DNA of 7,626 bases from a virus (taxonomy: Duplodnaviria > Heunggongvirae > Uroviricota > Caudoviricetes): IMG/VR virus record IMGVR_UViG_2778261276_000006. One strand, written 5' to 3'. Position 1 is the first letter of the stretch, and each line of letters begins with the position of its first letter. Below, in pieces: positions 1-7,626 of this stretch. The position numbers and the translations under genes were made by a program. Under the pieces are notes generated by a model. The model did no database searches and was not told where the DNA came from. It saw nothing but the letters and a program-made list of their open reading frames with translations.

Positions 1-61
1 CGGCACTACCTGCTGAGGTGCCATAGGCGACACCCGTTGTTAACTTATCCATGGATTTCAT
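1..61 (-). CDS. essD: Holin, S21/pinholin-like, 5' end only (continues beyond window start); dual-start motif
   Basis: Minus-strand reading from 61 gives MKSMDKLTTGVAYGTSAGSA... with two in-frame ATGs (61-59 and 52-50), as in the antiholin/holin dual start of lambdoid S genes. GAGGTGGGG lies just upstream. The N-terminus resembles phage 21 S / DLP12 EssD as recalled. Only 20 codons are visible. Confidence 0.6.
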   Translation of the reverse strand, partial: MKSMDKLTTGVAYGTSAGSA

Positions 62-349
62 AACCCCACCTCGCAGACAAAGCGGGTGTAAATTGAGGGA
101 ATACAACGTATCGCAAAAAAGCAGAAACGTAACAGACTCGGAGTCAGTGAATAACTCAGGTATTGAGTTATCAGCTAATATCGAGACTCAAAAAATGGAA
201 AAACCAGCTCGACGGCGGGTTTAAGCTGTGTGACGAAGTAACCACTCTTAACAGCATAACCAATTTTTTACGTACGTAAACCACTGAATGATATTTATGA
301 GAATGCTACCGAGTGTTCAAAACACCACCACAAATACATAAGAAAGCCT

Positions 350-370
350 CAACAAATAACCAACAAATAA
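350..370. repeat. Tandem direct repeat, 2 x CAACAAATAA separated by one C
   Basis: Read directly: caacaaataa at 350-359 and again at 361-370, in the AT-rich region upstream of the porin gene. Confidence 0.5.
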
Positions 371-650
371 TTTCCAGTGTTATTTTTAGCCGATTTAAAT
401 TGAACCTTCAAATTATAGAGCACTTATAAATAACAGCCGTTAATATAAATTGGCTAATAGATTTATTTTTATTCAGCCAAGAGCTATGAATAGGATTCGA
501 TAGAAAAAAGTTCAGATAAAAATAGAGATCTACTTCACAAATCAAACGAGAAACCAAAACTTACATCTTGAAATAATCACATTGATTAGATGAATATTTA
601 TCGCGCAGTGACATCATTTTTTAATAATAGTTCAAAAAAAAGGGCTCACG

Positions 651-1748
651 ATGAAAAAATTAACAGTGGCAATTTCTGCTGTAGCTGCATCAGTACTGAT
701 GGCGATGTCTGCTCAGGCAGCTGAAATTTATAATAAAGACAGTAACAAGCTGGATCTGTACGGGAAAGTTAATGCCAAGCACTACTTCTCCTCTAATGAT
801 GCAGATGATGGTGATACTACTTATGCCCGTCTTGGCTTCAAAGGTGAAACCCAAATCAACGATCAACTGACTGGTTTCGGTCAGTGGGAATATGAATTCA
901 AAGGCAACCGCGCTGAATCTCAAGGTTCCTCCAAAGACAAAACCCGTCTTGCATTTGCAGGCCTGAAATTCGGTGACTACGGCTCAATCGATTACGGCCG
1001 TAACTACGGTGTAGCATACGACATCGGTGCGTGGACTGACGTTCTGCCAGAATTCGGTGGCGATACCTGGACCCAAACAGATGTGTTCATGACTGGTCGC
1101 ACCACTGGTGTTGCAACCTATCGTAACAACGACTTCTTTGGTCTGGTTGATGGTCTGAACTTTGCTGCTCAGTACCAAGGCAAAAACGATCGTAGCGATT
1201 TCGATAACTACACTGAAGGTAACGGTGATGGCTTCGGTTTCTCTGCTACCTATGAATACGAAGGATTCGGTATCGGTGCAACTTATGCGAAATCTGATCG
1301 TACCGACACTCAAGTTAATGCAGGGAAAGTTCTTCCTGAAGTATTTGCTTCCGGTAAAAATGCAGAAGTTTGGGCCGCAGGTCTGAAATATGACGCTAAC
1401 AACATTTACCTGGCCACTACCTATTCTGAAACCCAGAATATGACTGTATTTGCTGATCACTTCGTTGCTAATAAAGCCCAAAACTTCGAAGCTGTTGCAC
1501 AATATCAGTTCGATTTCGGTCTGCGTCCGTCCGTTGCTTACCTGCAATCTAAAGGTAAAGATCTTGGAGTATGGGGCGATCAGGACTTAGTCAAATATGT
1601 TGATGTAGGTGCAACCTATTACTTCAACAAAAATATGTCTACTTTCGTTGATTACAAAATCAACCTGCTTGACAAAAATGACTTCACTAAAGCACTCGGT
1701 GTAAGCACTGATGACATCGTTGCTGTAGGTCTGGTTTACCAGTTCTAA
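651..1748 (+). CDS. nmpC: Outer-membrane general porin, prophage-encoded NmpC/Lc/OmpD family (365 aa, apparently intact)
   Basis: ATG start; signal peptide [23 protein letters not shown] with AQA-AE cleavage site; glycine/aromatic-rich beta-barrel composition; C-terminal ...VGLVYQF with terminal Phe typical of porins. Sequence recognised as NmpC/Lc-like. No IS interruption. Confidence 0.93.
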
Positions 1749-1764
1749 TCTGATTACGAAAAAG

Positions 1765-1798
1765 ATATGTTGCGGGAGGCGTTGCCTCCCCAACATAT
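1765..1798 (-). terminator. Hairpin with downstream U-tract on the minus strand; candidate tR'-like terminator downstream of Q (or a structural element of the porin 3' UTR)
   Basis: GC core gggaggc/gcctccc (1774-1780 / 1784-1790) extended by atatgttg/caacatat with one bulged C. On the minus strand it is followed by CTTTTTCG. It lies about 140 nt downstream of the quuD stop. Confidence 0.4.
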
Positions 1799-1886
1799 AA
1801 GTGGCTCCCTCAAGCCACTTCCTTTAGAAGCACAACCTTGCTTCTAACTATATAAACCTTCTGTTATATATTACCCTTTATTTTTG

Positions 1887-1915
1887 GGGGCGTCTCAACG
1901 CCCCATTTTTAATAA
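1887..1915 (+). terminator. Rho-independent terminator for the porin transcript
   Basis: Stem ggggcg (1887-1892) / cgcccc (1899-1904) with loop tctcaa, followed by atttttaataattttt on the plus strand. Confidence 0.6.
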
Positions 1916-1937
1916 TTTTTAGTAAACAATTGGCATA

Positions 1938-2321
1938 TTAATTAGAGTTATTAACAACGATATCCATCTCTAACCGGATATCTAATGCCATTAACATCCC
2001 TTCAATTATGCCCTCAGCCTTCTGTAACCTTTTCCCGATATAACCATCAGAGCAGCAATGCTTACCTGCCAGTGACATGAATGTCATACCGACTACATAA
2101 TAATCTACTAATAAATCGTGCAAATCGCTGTTGTTCTTTTTCAGACGGGCCATGCACCCGCAAATGATCATCGCGTCATCGTCACAACATTGCGGGCGAG
2201 ATTTTACTTTTGAAGGAATTAATCCCTTAAAACCGGCGGCAATGGACGACCAGGTCACATCTTCATGATTATTAGCCGCCCACGCTCCCCAACGCTCAAG
2301 AACCATCTGAATATCACGCAT
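1938..2321 (-). CDS. quuD: Late-gene antiterminator Q (QuuD-like, 127 aa)
   Basis: ORF track protein from [11 protein letters not shown]... to ...VVNNSN recognised as DLP12 QuuD. I place the start at ATG 2321-2319, preceded by GGAG 7 nt upstream, rather than the TTG at 2336 used by the track. Confidence 0.9.
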
Positions 2322-2406
2322 CAACTTACTCCACAAAAATCAGACCAGAACGCCAATCACAAGCAAAAATCAACAAAACAGTATTAGTTGATTGTTATCT
2401 CTGACT

Positions 2407-2547
2407 TCATACTCCTGCTCCTGTCAGGGTTTTGGCGTAATTCTTCAGTATTCGGTAATCGGTCAAAACAGAACCGGGGAAACGATATAAGCGCAGATGC
2501 CCCCAGCGGTGGCGAAGAAGTTCTGCCATATAAAACTCAAACATCAT
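2407..2547 (-). CDS. ylcG: Small protein YlcG-like (46 aa)
   Basis: Hand translation of the minus strand: [46 protein letters not shown], then TGA. Its ATG (2547-2545) overlaps the rusA TGA stop (2546-2544) as ATGA. Same position as ylcG between rusA and quuD in DLP12. Below the ORF-track length cutoff. Confidence 0.5.
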
Positions 2548-2906
2548 TCATTCCCCATTTCGGTGATGGTCAGTTCCAGCCTCCCACCTTTGGTAACAGG
2601 CATCTTCACAACGCGGTAATCAACGACCTGAGCATCATCCAGCCAGAAACCTGCTTTAGTGAGTGCGTCAAAAGCGGCTTTTTGCAGATTATCCAGGTCA
2701 CGGCGACGGCGATCCGGCATGTGGCACTCAATGCGGATTTTCACAGGCATAGCCAGGCCGATATCCAGCATTGCGTTTTTAATGATTCGGGCGACGTTAT
2801 CGCGGTATGCCTGCCCCTCTGCGCTGATGTGCGTGCGCCCGCGATTATGGCGGTAATAGCGATTATTGCTCGGAGGCCAGGGTAATGTGATGCTGTAGGT
2901 ATTCAC
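2544..2906 (-). CDS. rusA: Holliday-junction resolvase RusA (120 aa)
   Basis: Protein [24 protein letters not shown]... recognised as RusA. GTG start at 2906-2904 overlaps the ybcO stop (GTGA). Confidence 0.93.
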
Positions 2907-3193
2907 GCCTTAATAACCCCCTCTTTCAGCCAGATAACCTGTGTTCTCGCCATACCTTCCAGCGCGCATTCTTTTGCATACTCAGCATCGACAAAATGCG
3001 TGCGACGGTCGATCTCATCGTGACAGGCAGAACATGCAATGGTGGCAATCAGGTCTGGCGGTTTGGTACCGGTGCCACACAATTCAGCCAGCCGGATATG
3101 TGCCAGTACAGACGTTTCAGGGTTGCCATTACATACGCCAGGGATTCTTACCTGGCATTCCCGACCACGCGCTGCTTTTCTCAAATCAGCCAT
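2903..3193 (-). CDS. ybcO: YbcO-like Cys-rich putative nuclease (DUF1364), 96 aa
   Basis: [33 protein letters not shown]...CSACHDEID... Start placed at ATG 3193-3191 behind a strong AAGGAGG SD; the track's TTG at 3232 is a spurious N-terminal extension. Confidence 0.85.
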
Positions 3194-3356
3194 GATTCCT
3201 CCTTGCTGCCAGTCGCAACCATTTTTTATCAACCAGGCTGGCGGTATACCCTAGCAGTGTTGGTATTTCGGATGGCTTCAGCTCAGGCTTACGCTTACGA
3301 CGATTTGGTACTCTGTAGATGTGTCCGTTCATGACCCGAATAAGCGGTGTAGTCAT
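3186..3356 (-). CDS. ninE: NinE (56 aa)
   Basis: [59 protein letters not shown] 3356-3354 with AGGAGG 4 nt upstream; overlaps the ybcN stop by 1 nt (TAATG). The 3' end overlaps the ybcO start by 8 nt. Confidence 0.85.
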   Translation of the reverse strand: MTTPLIRVMNGHIYRVPNRRKRKPELKPSEIPTLLGYTASLVDKKWLRLAARRNHG

Positions 3357-3811
3357 TACGCCTCCTGCTTGTCGCGCAGCAGCTGGAACTCGCAGCTCTG
3401 TGGAATAGTCAGGTGGCAACCAATATTCATCGCCCAGGCTTCAACCTTACACAGGAAGACATACATCTCTCCGGTATCAAGATCGGAGGTATGGCGTAAC
3501 GACTGGATAGTGGTGATATCACCGGTTACGACATCAACCAGGTCTTTGGTTTCATAACCGAGATATGTGTGTTTGAGAGCATCTTTTACCCAAGCTGGAG
3601 TGGCGAACGTTTTACCCCTGCTGATGAGGTATTCACTGATTTCGCTGTACCACATGTGGCTGAGTGCATTCTGGGAAAGACTGCGTCTCTCGCGCCACGG
3701 TTTAAGCACCATGCGAAAGCATTTGCCGTCCTCCAGATAAGGCTGGATCTGCCGACCGATAGCGGTGAAGTTACCGCGATGCAATTTGATACCATCTTGT
3801 GGGAGGTTCAC
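3356..3811 (-). CDS. ybcN: YbcN (151 aa), DLP12 nin-region protein reported as DNA base-flipping protein
   Basis: ORF track protein [30 protein letters not shown]... recognised as YbcN. GTG start 3811-3809 with GGAGGTG SD 4 nt upstream. Confidence 0.9.
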
Positions 3812-4086: not shown

Positions 4087-5505
4087 ATGAAATATTTCTC
4101 AACTGGTTTTTATGTTTCAAACTCCACATCTCTAGCTGAGATCTTTAATGAATGTTTTTCTTGGGTAAACGACTCACCACATACAACTTTTATTCCAGCA
4201 CAATTAGTATGTGATTATAAAAGCGAGGAGTACTTCATAGAGTCTAAAAATGAAAGAATTGATATAATAAATTATAAAAACAAAGATACTAGTTTAGGCT
4301 GTTTTAGGTATTCGAAAATATCTGAGCCACACAAATGGGTAACAGATATTTCAATTAATAAAAATCTCAAAACTGATACCATGTGGATTCAGGTGGAATC
4401 TAGCGTTGTAAGCCAAGATGCAGCTTATCTAGCCCCGCAACCTAAGAAACCATTAGTTGTTATGAGATTGATTGATAAATTTCCTGGTGGTCTTGATGAT
4501 ATTTTCAAGGTGTCAGTCGAACCTCATTCCTTAGATGATACTGATGAACATTTAAATATAGCAGCTAAAGTTATAAATGGTGAAACTGACAACAGACTAC
4601 CAATAATATACGTTAGCTCCAAGTATTTTTTTAATGAACATGCTCACAATATCATCCCAGAACGCCTTGCAAGAAAGGTATGCGGATTAGCACATGTATT
4701 AATTGAGCCTAGCAATAGACTATTTTCTACTAAGCTAAAAAATGAGACAAATGCTAAAAATGCCTATGCTGGTGCTGTTGGTATCTATTGGCCACGGGGT
4801 CAAAATATCAGTTTTTATCGCCGTGGTGAGAAAACCGCAAAAGAATTTGAAGATGAGTTATTTGATGATGTTGTAAGAGCTACGACTACAATGGCTCCTG
4901 TCTCAGATAGTGGATGGAGTGAGATACAAACCAGAAAAACGAAAGACTCTATTAACTCACTCAAAGAAAGAGGAGAATACACACGCGAACTGATGGCGCT
5001 TTACGAAGCCGATAATGTTGCGAAAGATGACCAAATAGAAGATCTTAAGCATAAGATCTCCTCTTTAGAGCACAGAGTACGCACTCTTCAATCACAAGCT
5101 TCAGCCCAAGGAAGCATTGTGCTTAATGCTGGTGAAGAGACTGACTTTTTTGATGGAGAAATCAAAAATATAATTATTGACGCACTAAAAACTGCCATAA
5201 AAAATAAAAATGAATTTGGTAGAAGCTACCATAGCTTATCATCCCTAATTGCCAATAATGAATACAATAAAGAAACCGAGAGTCGCCGCCAATTACTTAA
5301 AAGGACTTTAACAGGTTACAGAAGCATGGATAGCGCAACACAAAGAAATTTAAAGGACTTAGGTTTCAGTGCGTCAAGCGATGGAAAACACTGGAAGTTA
5401 ACATATAATGAAGACCCTCGATATTCCTATATTTTACCTAAAACAGGAAGTGACCACAGAGGTTCTTTAAATGCTATCTCGGATATAGCAAACATTATTT
5501 TCTAA
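4087..5505 (+). CDS. Hypothetical protein, 472 aa, unassigned family; candidate prophage accessory / anti-phage defence gene
   Basis: Long uninterrupted ORF in AT-rich DNA, where stop codons are frequent. ATG with AAGGA SD 6 nt upstream. No signal peptide or obvious transmembrane segment, no Walker A motif. Central region predicted helical/coiled-coil (…EDLKHKISSLEHRVRTLQSQASAQ…). Followed by a hairpin terminator. Confidence 0.85.
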   Translation: MKYFSTGFYVSNSTSLAEIFNECFSWVNDSPHTTFIPAQLVCDYKSEEYFIESKNERIDIINYKNKDTSLGCFRYSKISEPHKWVTDISINKNLKTDTMWIQVESSVVSQDAAYLAPQPKKPLVVMRLIDKFPGGLDDIFKVSVEPHSLDDTDEHLNIAAKVINGETDNRLPIIYVSSKYFFNEHAHNIIPERLARKVCGLAHVLIEPSNRLFSTKLKNETNAKNAYAGAVGIYWPRGQNISFYRRGEKTAKEFEDELFDDVVRATTTMAPVSDSGWSEIQTRKTKDSINSLKERGEYTRELMALYEADNVAKDDQIEDLKHKISSLEHRVRTLQSQASAQGSIVLNAGEETDFFDGEIKNIIIDALKTAIKNKNEFGRSYHSLSSLIANNEYNKETESRRQLLKRTLTGYRSMDSATQRNLKDLGFSASSDGKHWKLTYNEDPRYSYILPKTGSDHRGSLNAISDIANIIF

Positions 5506-5869: not shown

Positions 5870-6163
5870 TCATACCCACTCTCTTCCATATAAAGCCAAC
5901 ACCCGCTTCATCGCGGCACTTTGACGACACTCCTTAAAAATCAGATTCGTGCTCACCTTTCCTTCCCGTTCTTCTCTGGTAGCGAACCGGTAATACACCG
6001 TTCGCCAGACCTTACCATCAACGACCAGGATTCCTGCCCGCGCCATTTTAGCCGCAGCCTGATTTATGCTGGTTACGGTTGCGCCTGTTACCGCGGCAAC
6101 GTCCTGCGCACAGAAGTTCTTATGAGTCCCCAGGTAATGAATAATTGCCTCTTTGCCCGTCAT
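5870..6163 (-). CDS. ren: Ren (97 aa)
   Basis: MTGKEAIIHYLGTH...AAKMARAG...RFATREEREGK... recognised as lambda Ren. ATG overlaps the P stop (ATGA). Confidence 0.88.
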   Translation of the reverse strand: MTGKEAIIHYLGTHKNFCAQDVAAVTGATVTSINQAAAKMARAGILVVDGKVWRTVYYRFATREEREGKVSTNLIFKECRQSAAMKRVLALYGREWV

Positions 6164-6861
6164 ACACTTGCTCCTTTCAGCCCAAACTTCGCTTTGATTT
6201 CTGCGATCTTCGCCAGAGACTGAACACGATTAAGCGGTCTCCCGCCCATAACAGGAAGTTGTTTTACTGGTTCAGGTATCGCCTCACCACGGTTAATTCG
6301 CGCTGTCATACAGGCCAGTTCATCGGCAGCCTTGCGCCGTAATTCCGCATCAGTCAGCGCATTGGCCCGCATGTTCTGATACAGGTTGGTAACCAGCCAG
6401 TAGTGCGCGTTTGATTTCCACGGATAAGACTCTGCATCCGGATACAGGCCACGTTTCCGGCAATACTCGTAAACCATATCAACCAGCTCGCTGGCGTTTG
6501 GCAGCCCGGCGGTAACGGATGCTTCTTCCCGGCACCAGGCAACAAACTGCCCGGGTGATGGCAGGAATGGTCGATTCTGCCGACGGGCTACGCGCATTCC
6601 TGCATTAACCTGTTCCATCGTGGTGATCCCGTTTTCCCGGAAAGCCAGAACCCACTGGCGGCGGATTTCGTTCAGTTCGTTCTGGTCCCGGTTAGCCAGG
6701 CTCGCCGGGAAAGTTGCCAGTAACTGGCTGAACACACCATTGATGATCTGCGCTACCTGTTGTACCTGCGGCTTTTCTTCGTACTGTTCCGGCATGTTGT
6801 TGGCGATCCGGCGCATCTGCTCACGGTCAAAGTTAACCATCTGTGCGGCGATGTTTTTCAT
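6160..6861 (-). CDS. P: Replication protein P (DnaB-loading), 233 aa
   Basis: Near-identical to lambda P as recalled (MKNIAAQMVNFDREQMRRIANNMPEQY...KAKFGLKGASV). GGTGGAG SD; ATG overlaps the O stop (ATGA). Confidence 0.95.
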   Translation of the reverse strand: MKNIAAQMVNFDREQMRRIANNMPEQYEEKPQVQQVAQIINGVFSQLLATFPASLANRDQNELNEIRRQWVLAFRENGITTMEQVNAGMRVARRQNRPFLPSPGQFVAWCREEASVTAGLPNASELVDMVYEYCRKRGLYPDAESYPWKSNAHYWLVTNLYQNMRANALTDAELRRKAADELACMTARINRGEAIPEPVKQLPVMGGRPLNRVQSLAKIAEIKAKFGLKGASV

Positions 6862-7361
6862 AGCTCCACCCCGTAAATCCAGTCAGTGTTCGTCAGGTCG
6901 AGTTTTGGTGTGCCGGCTGTCACGCCAGCCTGTTGCTTGTTTCGGTTGATTTCGAGCTGGGTCCACTTGTCGCGGAGTTTGGCTGGACTCAGCACGTTAC
7001 CGGACCAGAAGTTGTCCTGGCATGCCCAGCGGAACAGCACGCACATGTCGCGGTGGTTACGTCCGTCACGTTCACGCATCAGGCGGATATCGTTAGCCCA
7101 CCTTGCAAAATTCGGTTTTCTGGCTGATGGCGCGATGGTCTTCACCATGTCAAACATCCACTCTGCGGCGGTCAGGTCTTCTGCTGTCCCCCACTTGCTG
7201 CCACTCTGAATTGCAGCATCCGGTTTCACCACAGGAAGGTCGTTTTCTGGCTGGTCAGAGGATTCGCCAGAATTCTCGGACGAAAAAGGTTTTATATTGT
7301 CTTTTGTTAGTTTGTCTTTTGTGTTTACCTGATTCGGGTAAGCGCCTTTAGGCGCGATCAC
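6858..7361 (-). pseudogene. O: Replication initiator O, C-terminal fragment only (N-terminal iteron-binding domain missing)
   Basis: Track protein matches the lambda O C-terminal half from about the last iteron onward (...YPNQ..SSENSGESSDQPENDL.VVKPDAAIQSGSKWGTAEDLTAAEWMFDMVKT...WIYGVEL). The frame opens at a GTG (7361-7359) three codons after an in-frame TAG (7370-7368). Upstream minus-strand DNA does not encode an O N-terminus in any frame. Confidence 0.65.
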
Positions 7362-7475
7362 TTTCGTCTACTCCGTTACAAAGCGAGGCTGGGTATTTCC
7401 CGGCCTTTCTGTTACCCGAAATCCCCTGAAAGCACAGCGGCTGGCTGAGGAGATAAATAATAAACGGGGAGCTGT

Positions 7476-7626
7476 ATGCACAAAGCATCTCCTGTTGAGT
7501 TAAGAACGAGCATTGAGATGGCACATAGCCTCGCTCAAATTGGAGTCAGGTTTGTGCCAATACCAGTAGAAACAGACGAAGAATTTCATACGTTAGCCGC
7601 ATCCCTTTCACAAAAGCTGGAAATGA
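7476..7626 (+). CDS. Hypothetical protein, 5' end only (at least 50 codons, runs off window end)
   Basis: ATG at 7476 with GGGGAG 6 nt upstream; open to the window end: MHKASPVELRTSIEMAHSLAQIGVRFVPIPVETDEEFHTLAASLSQKLEM... Balanced protein-like composition. Divergent from O'. Family not recognised. Confidence 0.45.
   Translation, partial: MHKASPVELRTSIEMAHSLAQIGVRFVPIPVETDEEFHTLAASLSQKLEM

Follow-up and report, generated by a model that had tools for sequence, protein, structure and literature searches.

The 7,626-nucleotide virus record IMGVR_UViG_2778261276_000006 (Caudoviricetes; hereafter the window, meaning the whole of this stretch) carries an intact lambda-type replication gene P directly beside an O-like open reading frame (ORF) that holds the C-terminal half of O, denoted 'O. 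This raises the question of how the pair arose and whether the element that carries it can still function as a prophage. Comparison with related phages and prophages indicates that the window is almost certainly the early-right and nin region of a defective lambdoid prophage at the thrW site, in which a single collinear deletion of ~5.3 kb explains 'O. The element is one more cryptic lambdoid prophage with its early region deleted, which is a well-known kind; the left endpoint of its deletion recurs to the nucleotide in other prophages and very likely represents a precise deletion hot spot. The features around the deletion are:

6858–7361, minus strand: 'O, 167 amino acids (aa), the C-terminal (by homology P-interacting) half of O
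6160–6861, minus strand: P, 233 aa, full length (Pfam Phage_lambda_P, 9e-62)
7288–7324 (7288 approximate), minus strand: AT-rich segment of the replication origin (ori), acacaaaagacaaactaacaaaagacaatataaaacc
7325–7341, minus strand: surviving iteron, number 5 of 5, TTACCCGAATCAGGTAA
7349–7350, no strand: deletion junction, a TA common to the left flank (...GTGATCGCGCCTA) and the right flank (TAAAGGCGCTTACCC...)
7342–7355, no strand: perfect small palindrome GCGCCT-AA-AGGCGC, created by the junction
7351–7503, plus strand: remnant of orf60a (DUF1317), its first 11–12 codons gone, matching profile positions 13–60 of 60
7476–7626, plus strand: 5' part of orf63 (DUF1382), extending past the window edge

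The 'O product corresponds to residues 138–299 of lambda O, the C-terminal 162 residues of that protein, with 90% identity, and to residues ~177–339 of the two 339-aa O proteins of phage PhiR26_1 and Escherichia coli 13TMH22 with 94–97% identity; set against the closest intact O, it has three differences (A/V, R/G and T/K) in ~163 O-derived residues. It has no Pfam matches, and the Phage_rep_O domain (PF04492), the N-terminal winged-helix origin-binding domain found at residues 51–145 or 22–115 of full-length relatives, is missing. Only positions 147–317 of the 318 in the PHROG 277 profile are covered. Judged by homology, the domain that is kept corresponds to the P-binding half of lambda O. 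The adjoining P protein is 97% identical to lambda P, and the ATG of its gene overlaps the stop codon of 'O. The first-pass annotation, made from the sequence alone, had described the locus as a truncated O without its origin-binding domain and most of its iterons beside an intact P, and all of this is borne out, as is the start that it proposed: a GTG (7361–7359) three codons past an in-frame TAG (7370–7368). Because this GTG and the first four codons (GTG ATC GCG CCT) come from antisense orf60a, with only the remainder derived from the C-terminal half of O, 'O is an accidental in-frame fusion. Full-length homologues (299–339 aa) start ~175 codons before the position of the window's GTG. The N-terminal domain is likewise absent from the other frames nearby, as the upstream DNA (7349–7626) consists of orf60a and orf63 with 100% identity to PhiR26_1, and longer contigs continue from there to an integrase gene and tRNA-Thr, in agreement with the earlier statement that nothing upstream encodes an O N-terminus. 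PHROG 2357, a family of 124-aa proteins with function unassigned, matches 'O residues 45–166 along its entire length. Its existence suggests that ORFs comprising only the O C-terminus occur in phage and prophage records often enough to make up a family of their own, and its members may be truncation products resembling 'O.

In lambda, the N-terminal domain of O binds the iteron array to nucleate the O-some, and pR drives expression of O and P. The intact relative PhiR26_1 has an array of five 17-bp palindromic iterons, TTACC(C/T)RAA(T/A)(C/G)AGGTAA, and lambda has four, compared with one in the window. The iterons also differ in kind, being ATCCCTC..GAGGGAT in lambda and TTACC..GGTAA in the five-iteron, 339-aa O type from which 'O derives, whereas the AT-rich region and its position within the gene are common to the window and lambda. 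This AT-rich unwinding segment, which the first-pass annotation had recognized, is present beside the remaining iteron (7324 to ~7288); it matches that of PhiR26_1 exactly and shows clear homology to the AT-rich region of lambda ori.

The deletion itself is seen when positions 6700–7626 are compared with phage genomes by BLAST, as they split into two collinear pieces of PhiR26_1 in the same orientation. Window 7626–7349 equals PhiR26_1 2356–2633 with 100% identity (orf63 and orf60a), and window 7350–6700 equals PhiR26_1 7952–8602 with 96.8% identity (O from codon ~176 onward, and P). The 5.3 kb between these points in PhiR26_1 hold the first codons of orf60a, exo, bet, gam, kil, a lipoprotein gene, cI, cro, a YdaT-domain gene in the position of cII, and the 5' half of O. 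At the joint the sequence runs ...GTGATCGCGCC-TA-AAGGCGCTTACCC..., and both parents have in common the TA alone (2 bp). Codon 12 of orf60a is thereby fused to the iteron 4/5 spacer within O, and O codons 1 to ~176 and iterons 1–4 are deleted. A deletion junction had been predicted near 7345–7475 and was found at 7350–7349, the lower edge of that range; its location was thus anticipated, but the loss of ~5.3 kb is far larger than had been proposed. A palindrome similar to that at the window's junction, GCGCCT-AAC-AGGCGC, is formed by a junction inside ren in another contig (L021), and GGCGC occurs 0–3 nt past the TA at the left endpoint (bottom strand), the O iteron 4/5 site and the ren site.

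Because the deletion spans exo through the cII-position gene, both pL and pR are lost. With no O N-terminal domain or iteron array and no pR, established lambda biology predicts that the element is unable to replicate or be induced, or to be repressed; given that immunity, early promoters and replication are all gone, it would be inherited passively. The first-pass proposal that the prophage is cryptic is in keeping with the loss of its early region, immunity and replication parts, as far as function can be predicted from them. Two considerations weigh against taking this account at full strength: non-inducibility and silence of 'O are deduced and read-through transcription could occur, and the deleted length is derived from relatives and not from the exact parent prophage. 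For annotation, 'O is best labelled a pseudogene and the element non-inducible.

The same junction is widespread. Exact-protein look-up found the exact 167-aa product on at least 22 contigs from NCBI, ENA metagenome and Logan SRA assemblies, with 99.4–100% identity over the shared length, and the junction is also present in the complete genomes CP099178.1 and CP057062.1. No single-piece match to the junction was obtained among 5,426 complete RefSeq E. coli genomes, and the exact 41-nt junction pattern gave zero matches in one-genome-per-species GTDB contigs. On the longest contig, proA and tRNA-Thr(CGU), the thrW site, immediately precede the element, and the order on two contigs (L004 and L005) is proA, tRNA-Thr(CGU), int, DUF4222, TraR, orf61, orf63, the junction, 'O, P and ren, continuing to Q, the porin gene, lysis genes and terminase. 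The element thus combines a tRNA-adjacent position, an integrase and lambdoid gene order with the absence of lytic and immunity genes relative to PhiR26_1 and 13TMH22, as in cryptic lambdoid prophages; 13TMH22 retains the entire region deleted in the window.

Other origins for 'O fare poorly beside a single deletion. An assembly or sequencing artefact, either a chimeric contig or a frameshift concealing a full-length O, could be suspected from the fact that the window is a short draft-assembly contig (7,626 bp, all of NLFY01000074.1 from GCA_002225755.1, reversed). However, the occurrence of the identical junction (at least 99.4%) in these independent assemblies and two complete genomes, together with the identity of the upstream DNA as orf60a and orf63 in place of O in another frame, makes the chance of such an error practically negligible. 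It is also extremely unlikely that natural module exchange produced a viable phage design with a short O-like protein after the exo-xis genes. Lambdoid mosaics do have sharp shared boundaries, such as the one after gam that 46 of 119 contigs have in common, and PHROG 2357 represents the C-terminal part of O as a protein in its own right. Here, by contrast, both flanks end within genes (orf60a codon 12 and O codon ~177), the element lacks the repressor, cro, the N region, pL/pR and four iterons, a break at this site occurs in 0 of 187 genomes from isolated phages, and the partners joined to the left endpoint are without exception collinear truncated genes. Retention of the O C-terminus, P and ren as a domesticated fragment, serving the host by titrating P/DnaB of superinfecting lambdoids or by exclusion, has somewhat more to recommend it and is nonetheless improbable. 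The P, ren and 'O frames are intact and 90–97% identical to those of lambda, a GGAG stands 9 nt upstream of the GTG, and other junctions with the same left endpoint are in frame from the same GTG (L015, L019, L025, L018 and the ninB type). Yet no promoter-like sites were found in 6700–7626, in-frame fusion from the shared GTG at ~6 of 12 junctions does not significantly exceed the 1/3 expected, and the three residue differences give no selection signal either way, intactness being explained equally well by a recent deletion.

The left flank of the deletion terminates at an endpoint (L*) that is reused to the nucleotide in at least 18 prophage deletions, with 16 different right partners and two left partners. 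The endpoint corresponds to window 7349–7350, to the step between positions 1134 and 1135 in an intact relative (L001), and to codon 11/12 of lambda orf60a, just downstream of exo. Partners were collected by scanning IMG/VR and metagenomes for ...GACGAAAGTGATCGCGCCTA followed by any base except C, and by exact-protein look-up of the 48-aa orf60a remnant (7357–7503 in the public record), listed in 143 collection blocks. The 16 different right sequences all follow ...GATCGC(G/A)CCTA^ (a caret marks the joint or nick throughout). Within identified genes they begin in the O iteron 4/5 spacer, the O C-terminus, P (two sites), ren, ninB, ybcN, ybcO, ydaT and cro. Of the other six, one coincides with the start of a tail-fibre gene, one lies just ahead of an Rz-like gene, one lies just ahead of baseplate genes, and three are at unidentified sites. 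Since each of the 16 is collinear with the prophage map, all represent deletions. In nine complete genomes, both halves of the query were matched ~0.9 kb further apart than in the window, with orf60a stopping at the same nucleotide; the ydaT and cro partners come from these genomes and lie inside the ydaT/cII-position gene of an icd-site prophage and inside cro of an argU-site prophage. The opposite side of the TA (^CCCGGATATT...) is joined to the two left partners, one of which is the xisD'/exoD' junction of the K-12 prophage DLP12.

Several individual cases bear on this endpoint. In three thrW-site prophages (L148, L149 and L154; proA-thrW), the orf60a remnant ends at the same TA and is joined inside ninB, and the downstream nin region differs from that of the window (Dam, NinE, NinX and RusA). 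Together with the window, they show that a single attachment site harbours two distinct deletions with a common endpoint. The argU-site prophage of E. coli TKEC21-59 (L016) has a separate deletion internal to O at 4112–4126 (...GATGATGGTTA^AAGGCGTTTACCC), and uses the left endpoint in a second deletion. Its O deletion shares the right endpoint of the window (window 7348; ^AAGGCG(C/T)TTACCC, between iterons 4 and 5); the right-endpoint pattern HTAAAGGCRYTTACCCGAATCAGG had no IMG/VR matches, and its reuse is seen in two cases, the window and this prophage. An unrelated metagenomic phage (IMGVR_UViG_3300028241_001340, 5472–5492) contains the 20-mer GACGAAAGTGATCGCGCCTA with different context on both sides. 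The 20-mer there overlaps with the GTG at which a tail-fibre-like gene probably starts (MIAPNIIIPFDG...), and an identity of 20 nt is beyond chance.

The partner sites have sequence properties of their own. Among the 13 right partners with known intact context, TA stands just before the joint in all 13 (background 5.1% per nt). It is preceded by GG in six (GGTA, background 8.4% of TA sites, p=3.6e-4) and fits GNTA in 11 (background 30% of TA sites, p=8e-5). Since the GG of the partners has no homology to the CCTA side that is kept, this preference is more than extended microhomology. The bottom strand of the left endpoint itself reads CCGGGTA. Further TA junctions were encountered unsought: in NCTC11023 a tail-fibre gene is joined to cgGGTA^ in orf60a, 64 nt left of the endpoint, and ccGGTA^ lies in exo and cgGGTA^ in gam. 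Events of other classes in the same region, which act as controls, show long microhomology (the E. coli G4/9 prophage) or association with insertion sequences (IS) IS1 or IS629, in which the IS is retained.

To gauge how often the site breaks, 119 IMG/VR contigs were sampled without bias, the orf60a core sequence being the sole ground for inclusion. Four of them break at this site, with four different partners, and no other breaks occur within the 400 nt examined beyond the core. Across ~1.9 kb to the right, the site accounts for four of ~9 breaks that are not mosaic boundaries between genes; the ~5 others are scattered and comprise one IS629 insertion and four deletion-type breaks, three of these four at G(G/T)TA. 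The large clusters of breaks in the sample are mosaic boundaries shared at gene ends. The 187 isolated phage genomes include none with a break at the site, and no IS was present there in ~130 contigs or in these phages; a TA-specific IS once resident at the site is accordingly unsupported.

Taken together, these data make it very likely that the left endpoint is a nucleotide-precise deletion hot spot in lambdoid prophages. Against this, the first set of partners was found with a pattern anchored on the endpoint, so ascertainment enters; the unbiased sample has only four events at the site; and some of the junction-bearing prophages could be related through recombination and thus not be fully independent. 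It could also be argued that no site-specific step is involved, the recurrent endpoint being a product of ordinary illegitimate recombination at microhomologies or of IS-mediated deletion. Such processes do operate in this region, as shown by the gam'/'P joint in G4/9 via 9/11-nt microhomology, an IS1-mediated deletion (L162) and an IS629 insertion (L136), and the TA overlap is formally a 2-bp microhomology. This explanation is unlikely, though less so than those considered for 'O, given that 18 partners meet at one dinucleotide with an overlap of only 2–3 bp, that an IS is found at none of these junctions, that the partners are enriched in GGTA, which is non-homologous to the CCTA side, and that both sides of the site are used. 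No published account of a deletion hot spot in orf60a or the exo-xis region was found in the literature searched. If the hot spot holds, prophage decay would be channelled in part through a specific DNA site, beyond random erosion, which would offer a testable handle on prophage inactivation and domestication (which nuclease, under what conditions, and with what selection).

The most likely cause of the hot spot would be site-preferential breakage beside the 10-mer CCCGGATATT, followed by end joining at TA. Intact relatives read GCGCCTA^CCCGGATATT, the 10-mer starting directly after the hot-spot TA and comprising a CCCGG core with a 5-bp AT-rich wing. It is unique in the 9-kb reference, conserved in ~109 of 119 intact contigs, and deleted in the window itself. 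The same 10-mer figures in work on GajA, the Gabija nuclease of Bacillus cereus, which cuts lambda DNA at 5'-AATAACCCGGATATT-3', has AATAACCCGG or CCCGGATATT as minimal nicking site, either being sufficient, and follows the degenerate nicking motif TNNNS^RGGNNA (PMC8136825). The bottom strand of the hot spot reads TATCC^GGGTAG, and S^RGGNNA is matched perfectly at several partner sites, among them iteron 4 (C^AGGTAA), gam (C^GGGTAA, reference position 2738) and xis (G^AGGTAA). The correspondence is incomplete, as the published GajA nick falls within CCCGG (CC^CGG / CC^GGG), 2 nt from the observed joint, and the enzyme studied is from B. cereus whereas the hot spot lies in E. coli prophages.

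A link to this class of nuclease may also be drawn through the genes that are lost. Lambda Gam antagonises RecBCD, and the P2 Old protein (OLD family) penalises lambda that expresses Gam, selecting red-gam deletions (Spi-) on P2 old+ lysogens. The Spi- derivatives of lambda likewise lose exo-bet-gam, where an OLD-family nuclease acts; they are, however, viable laboratory-selected phages, whereas the present elements are dead prophages of natural isolates. A 2025 preprint puts forward the proposal that RecBCD-antagonising phage DNA end-binding proteins sensitise phages to Gabija (PMC12407980). In the corresponding model for prophages, a sequence-preferring Gabija/OLD-type nuclease would cut replicating, Gam-expressing prophage DNA at the hot spot and would also cut weaker (S)RGGTA sites. 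The ends would then be joined via the palindromic TA to give nested deletions, and survival would be favoured once the lethal early region is lost. That such cutting drives the nested deletions that make prophages cryptic, including K-12 DLP12 and the window's element, is put forward tentatively, as a possibility with the odds against it: no nuclease has been tied to the site in E. coli, nor Gabija to the carrier strains, and the GajA match came after many enzymes had been considered. If true, anti-phage defence nucleases would directly and site-specifically drive prophage domestication.

Alternatively, breakage at the hot spot may be related to O protein or its iterons, since the hot-spot sequence CTACCCGGAT resembles half an iteron (TTACCCGAAT) and the right endpoint of the window is an iteron edge; however, the exo-xis sequence also occurs in phages with other O types. 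The motifs do not fit for RusA (which cuts 5' of CC), Vsr, XerCD/dif, Pin/Hin invertases or gyrase, nor for terminase pseudo-cos sites or KpnI-like restriction enzymes, and these candidates were rejected. Restriction enzymes of the CCNGG type would cut exactly TA^CCCGG, yet they explain neither the rarity of the site nor the partner motif.

Two related prophages have also lost the early region. DLP12 of E. coli K-12 shares the nin-Q-porin-lysis set of the window (ybcN, ninE, ybcO, rusA, ylcG, quuD and an nmpC-type porin) and carries the pseudogenes xisD', exoD', peaD' and renD, in which an internal deletion also removed the immunity and replication region and joined exoD' to peaD'. The junction of its xisD' and exoD' falls on the TA that the window's junction also uses, but on the opposite side. 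The two elements differ in attachment site (argU for DLP12, thrW for the window's element) and in what survives of the replication genes: DLP12 has lost O wholly and keeps only a stump of P, whereas in the window P is complete and half of O remains, with one iteron. The prophage of E. coli G4/9 (NZ_CP060073.1) is the closest complete-genome relative of the window; positions 1–3800 of the window are 100% identical to it and closely resemble DLP12. It shares the 472-aa gene and ren with the window and also lacks the immunity and replication region, but it differs in having gam' joined to 'P, IS3 insertions and a different integrase. As its deletion differs from that of the window, the same region has been lost independently. 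One IS3-family insertion in G4/9 (L003/L013) lies between ybcN and the 472-aa gene and a second in orf63, and a terminase'/'baseplate J fusion is also present, so that several independent decay events have accumulated in one prophage.

The remainder of the window follows the lambdoid rightward direction on the minus strand. Its order is orf63 and orf60a (antisense), the 167-aa O-like ORF, P, ren and an 84-aa ORF, then the 472-aa gene (opposite strand), ybcN/ninB, ninE, ybcO, rusA, ylcG, Q (quuD type) and the porin gene. The features in this part are:

5870–6163, minus strand: ren, 97 aa (PHROG 142, 2.5e-41), annotated as 'protein ren' in relatives
4087–5505, plus strand: the 472-aa gene, situated between ren and ybcN/ninB and opposite to them in strand
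651–1748, plus strand: porin gene of ompC/nmpC type, 365 aa, intact, downstream of Q

The porin gene is intact in the window, whereas the nmpC gene of K-12 DLP12 is split by IS5. The product of the 472-aa gene has zero Pfam matches; it gives a partial PADLOC match to the candidate system HEC-07 (1.2e-9, residues 82–337) and a C-terminal match to PHROG 2053. The gene is also found in 13TMH22 and G4/9, and its slot is occupied in PhiR26_1 by the defence gene PD-lambda-1. It is probably an uncharacterised anti-phage gene.

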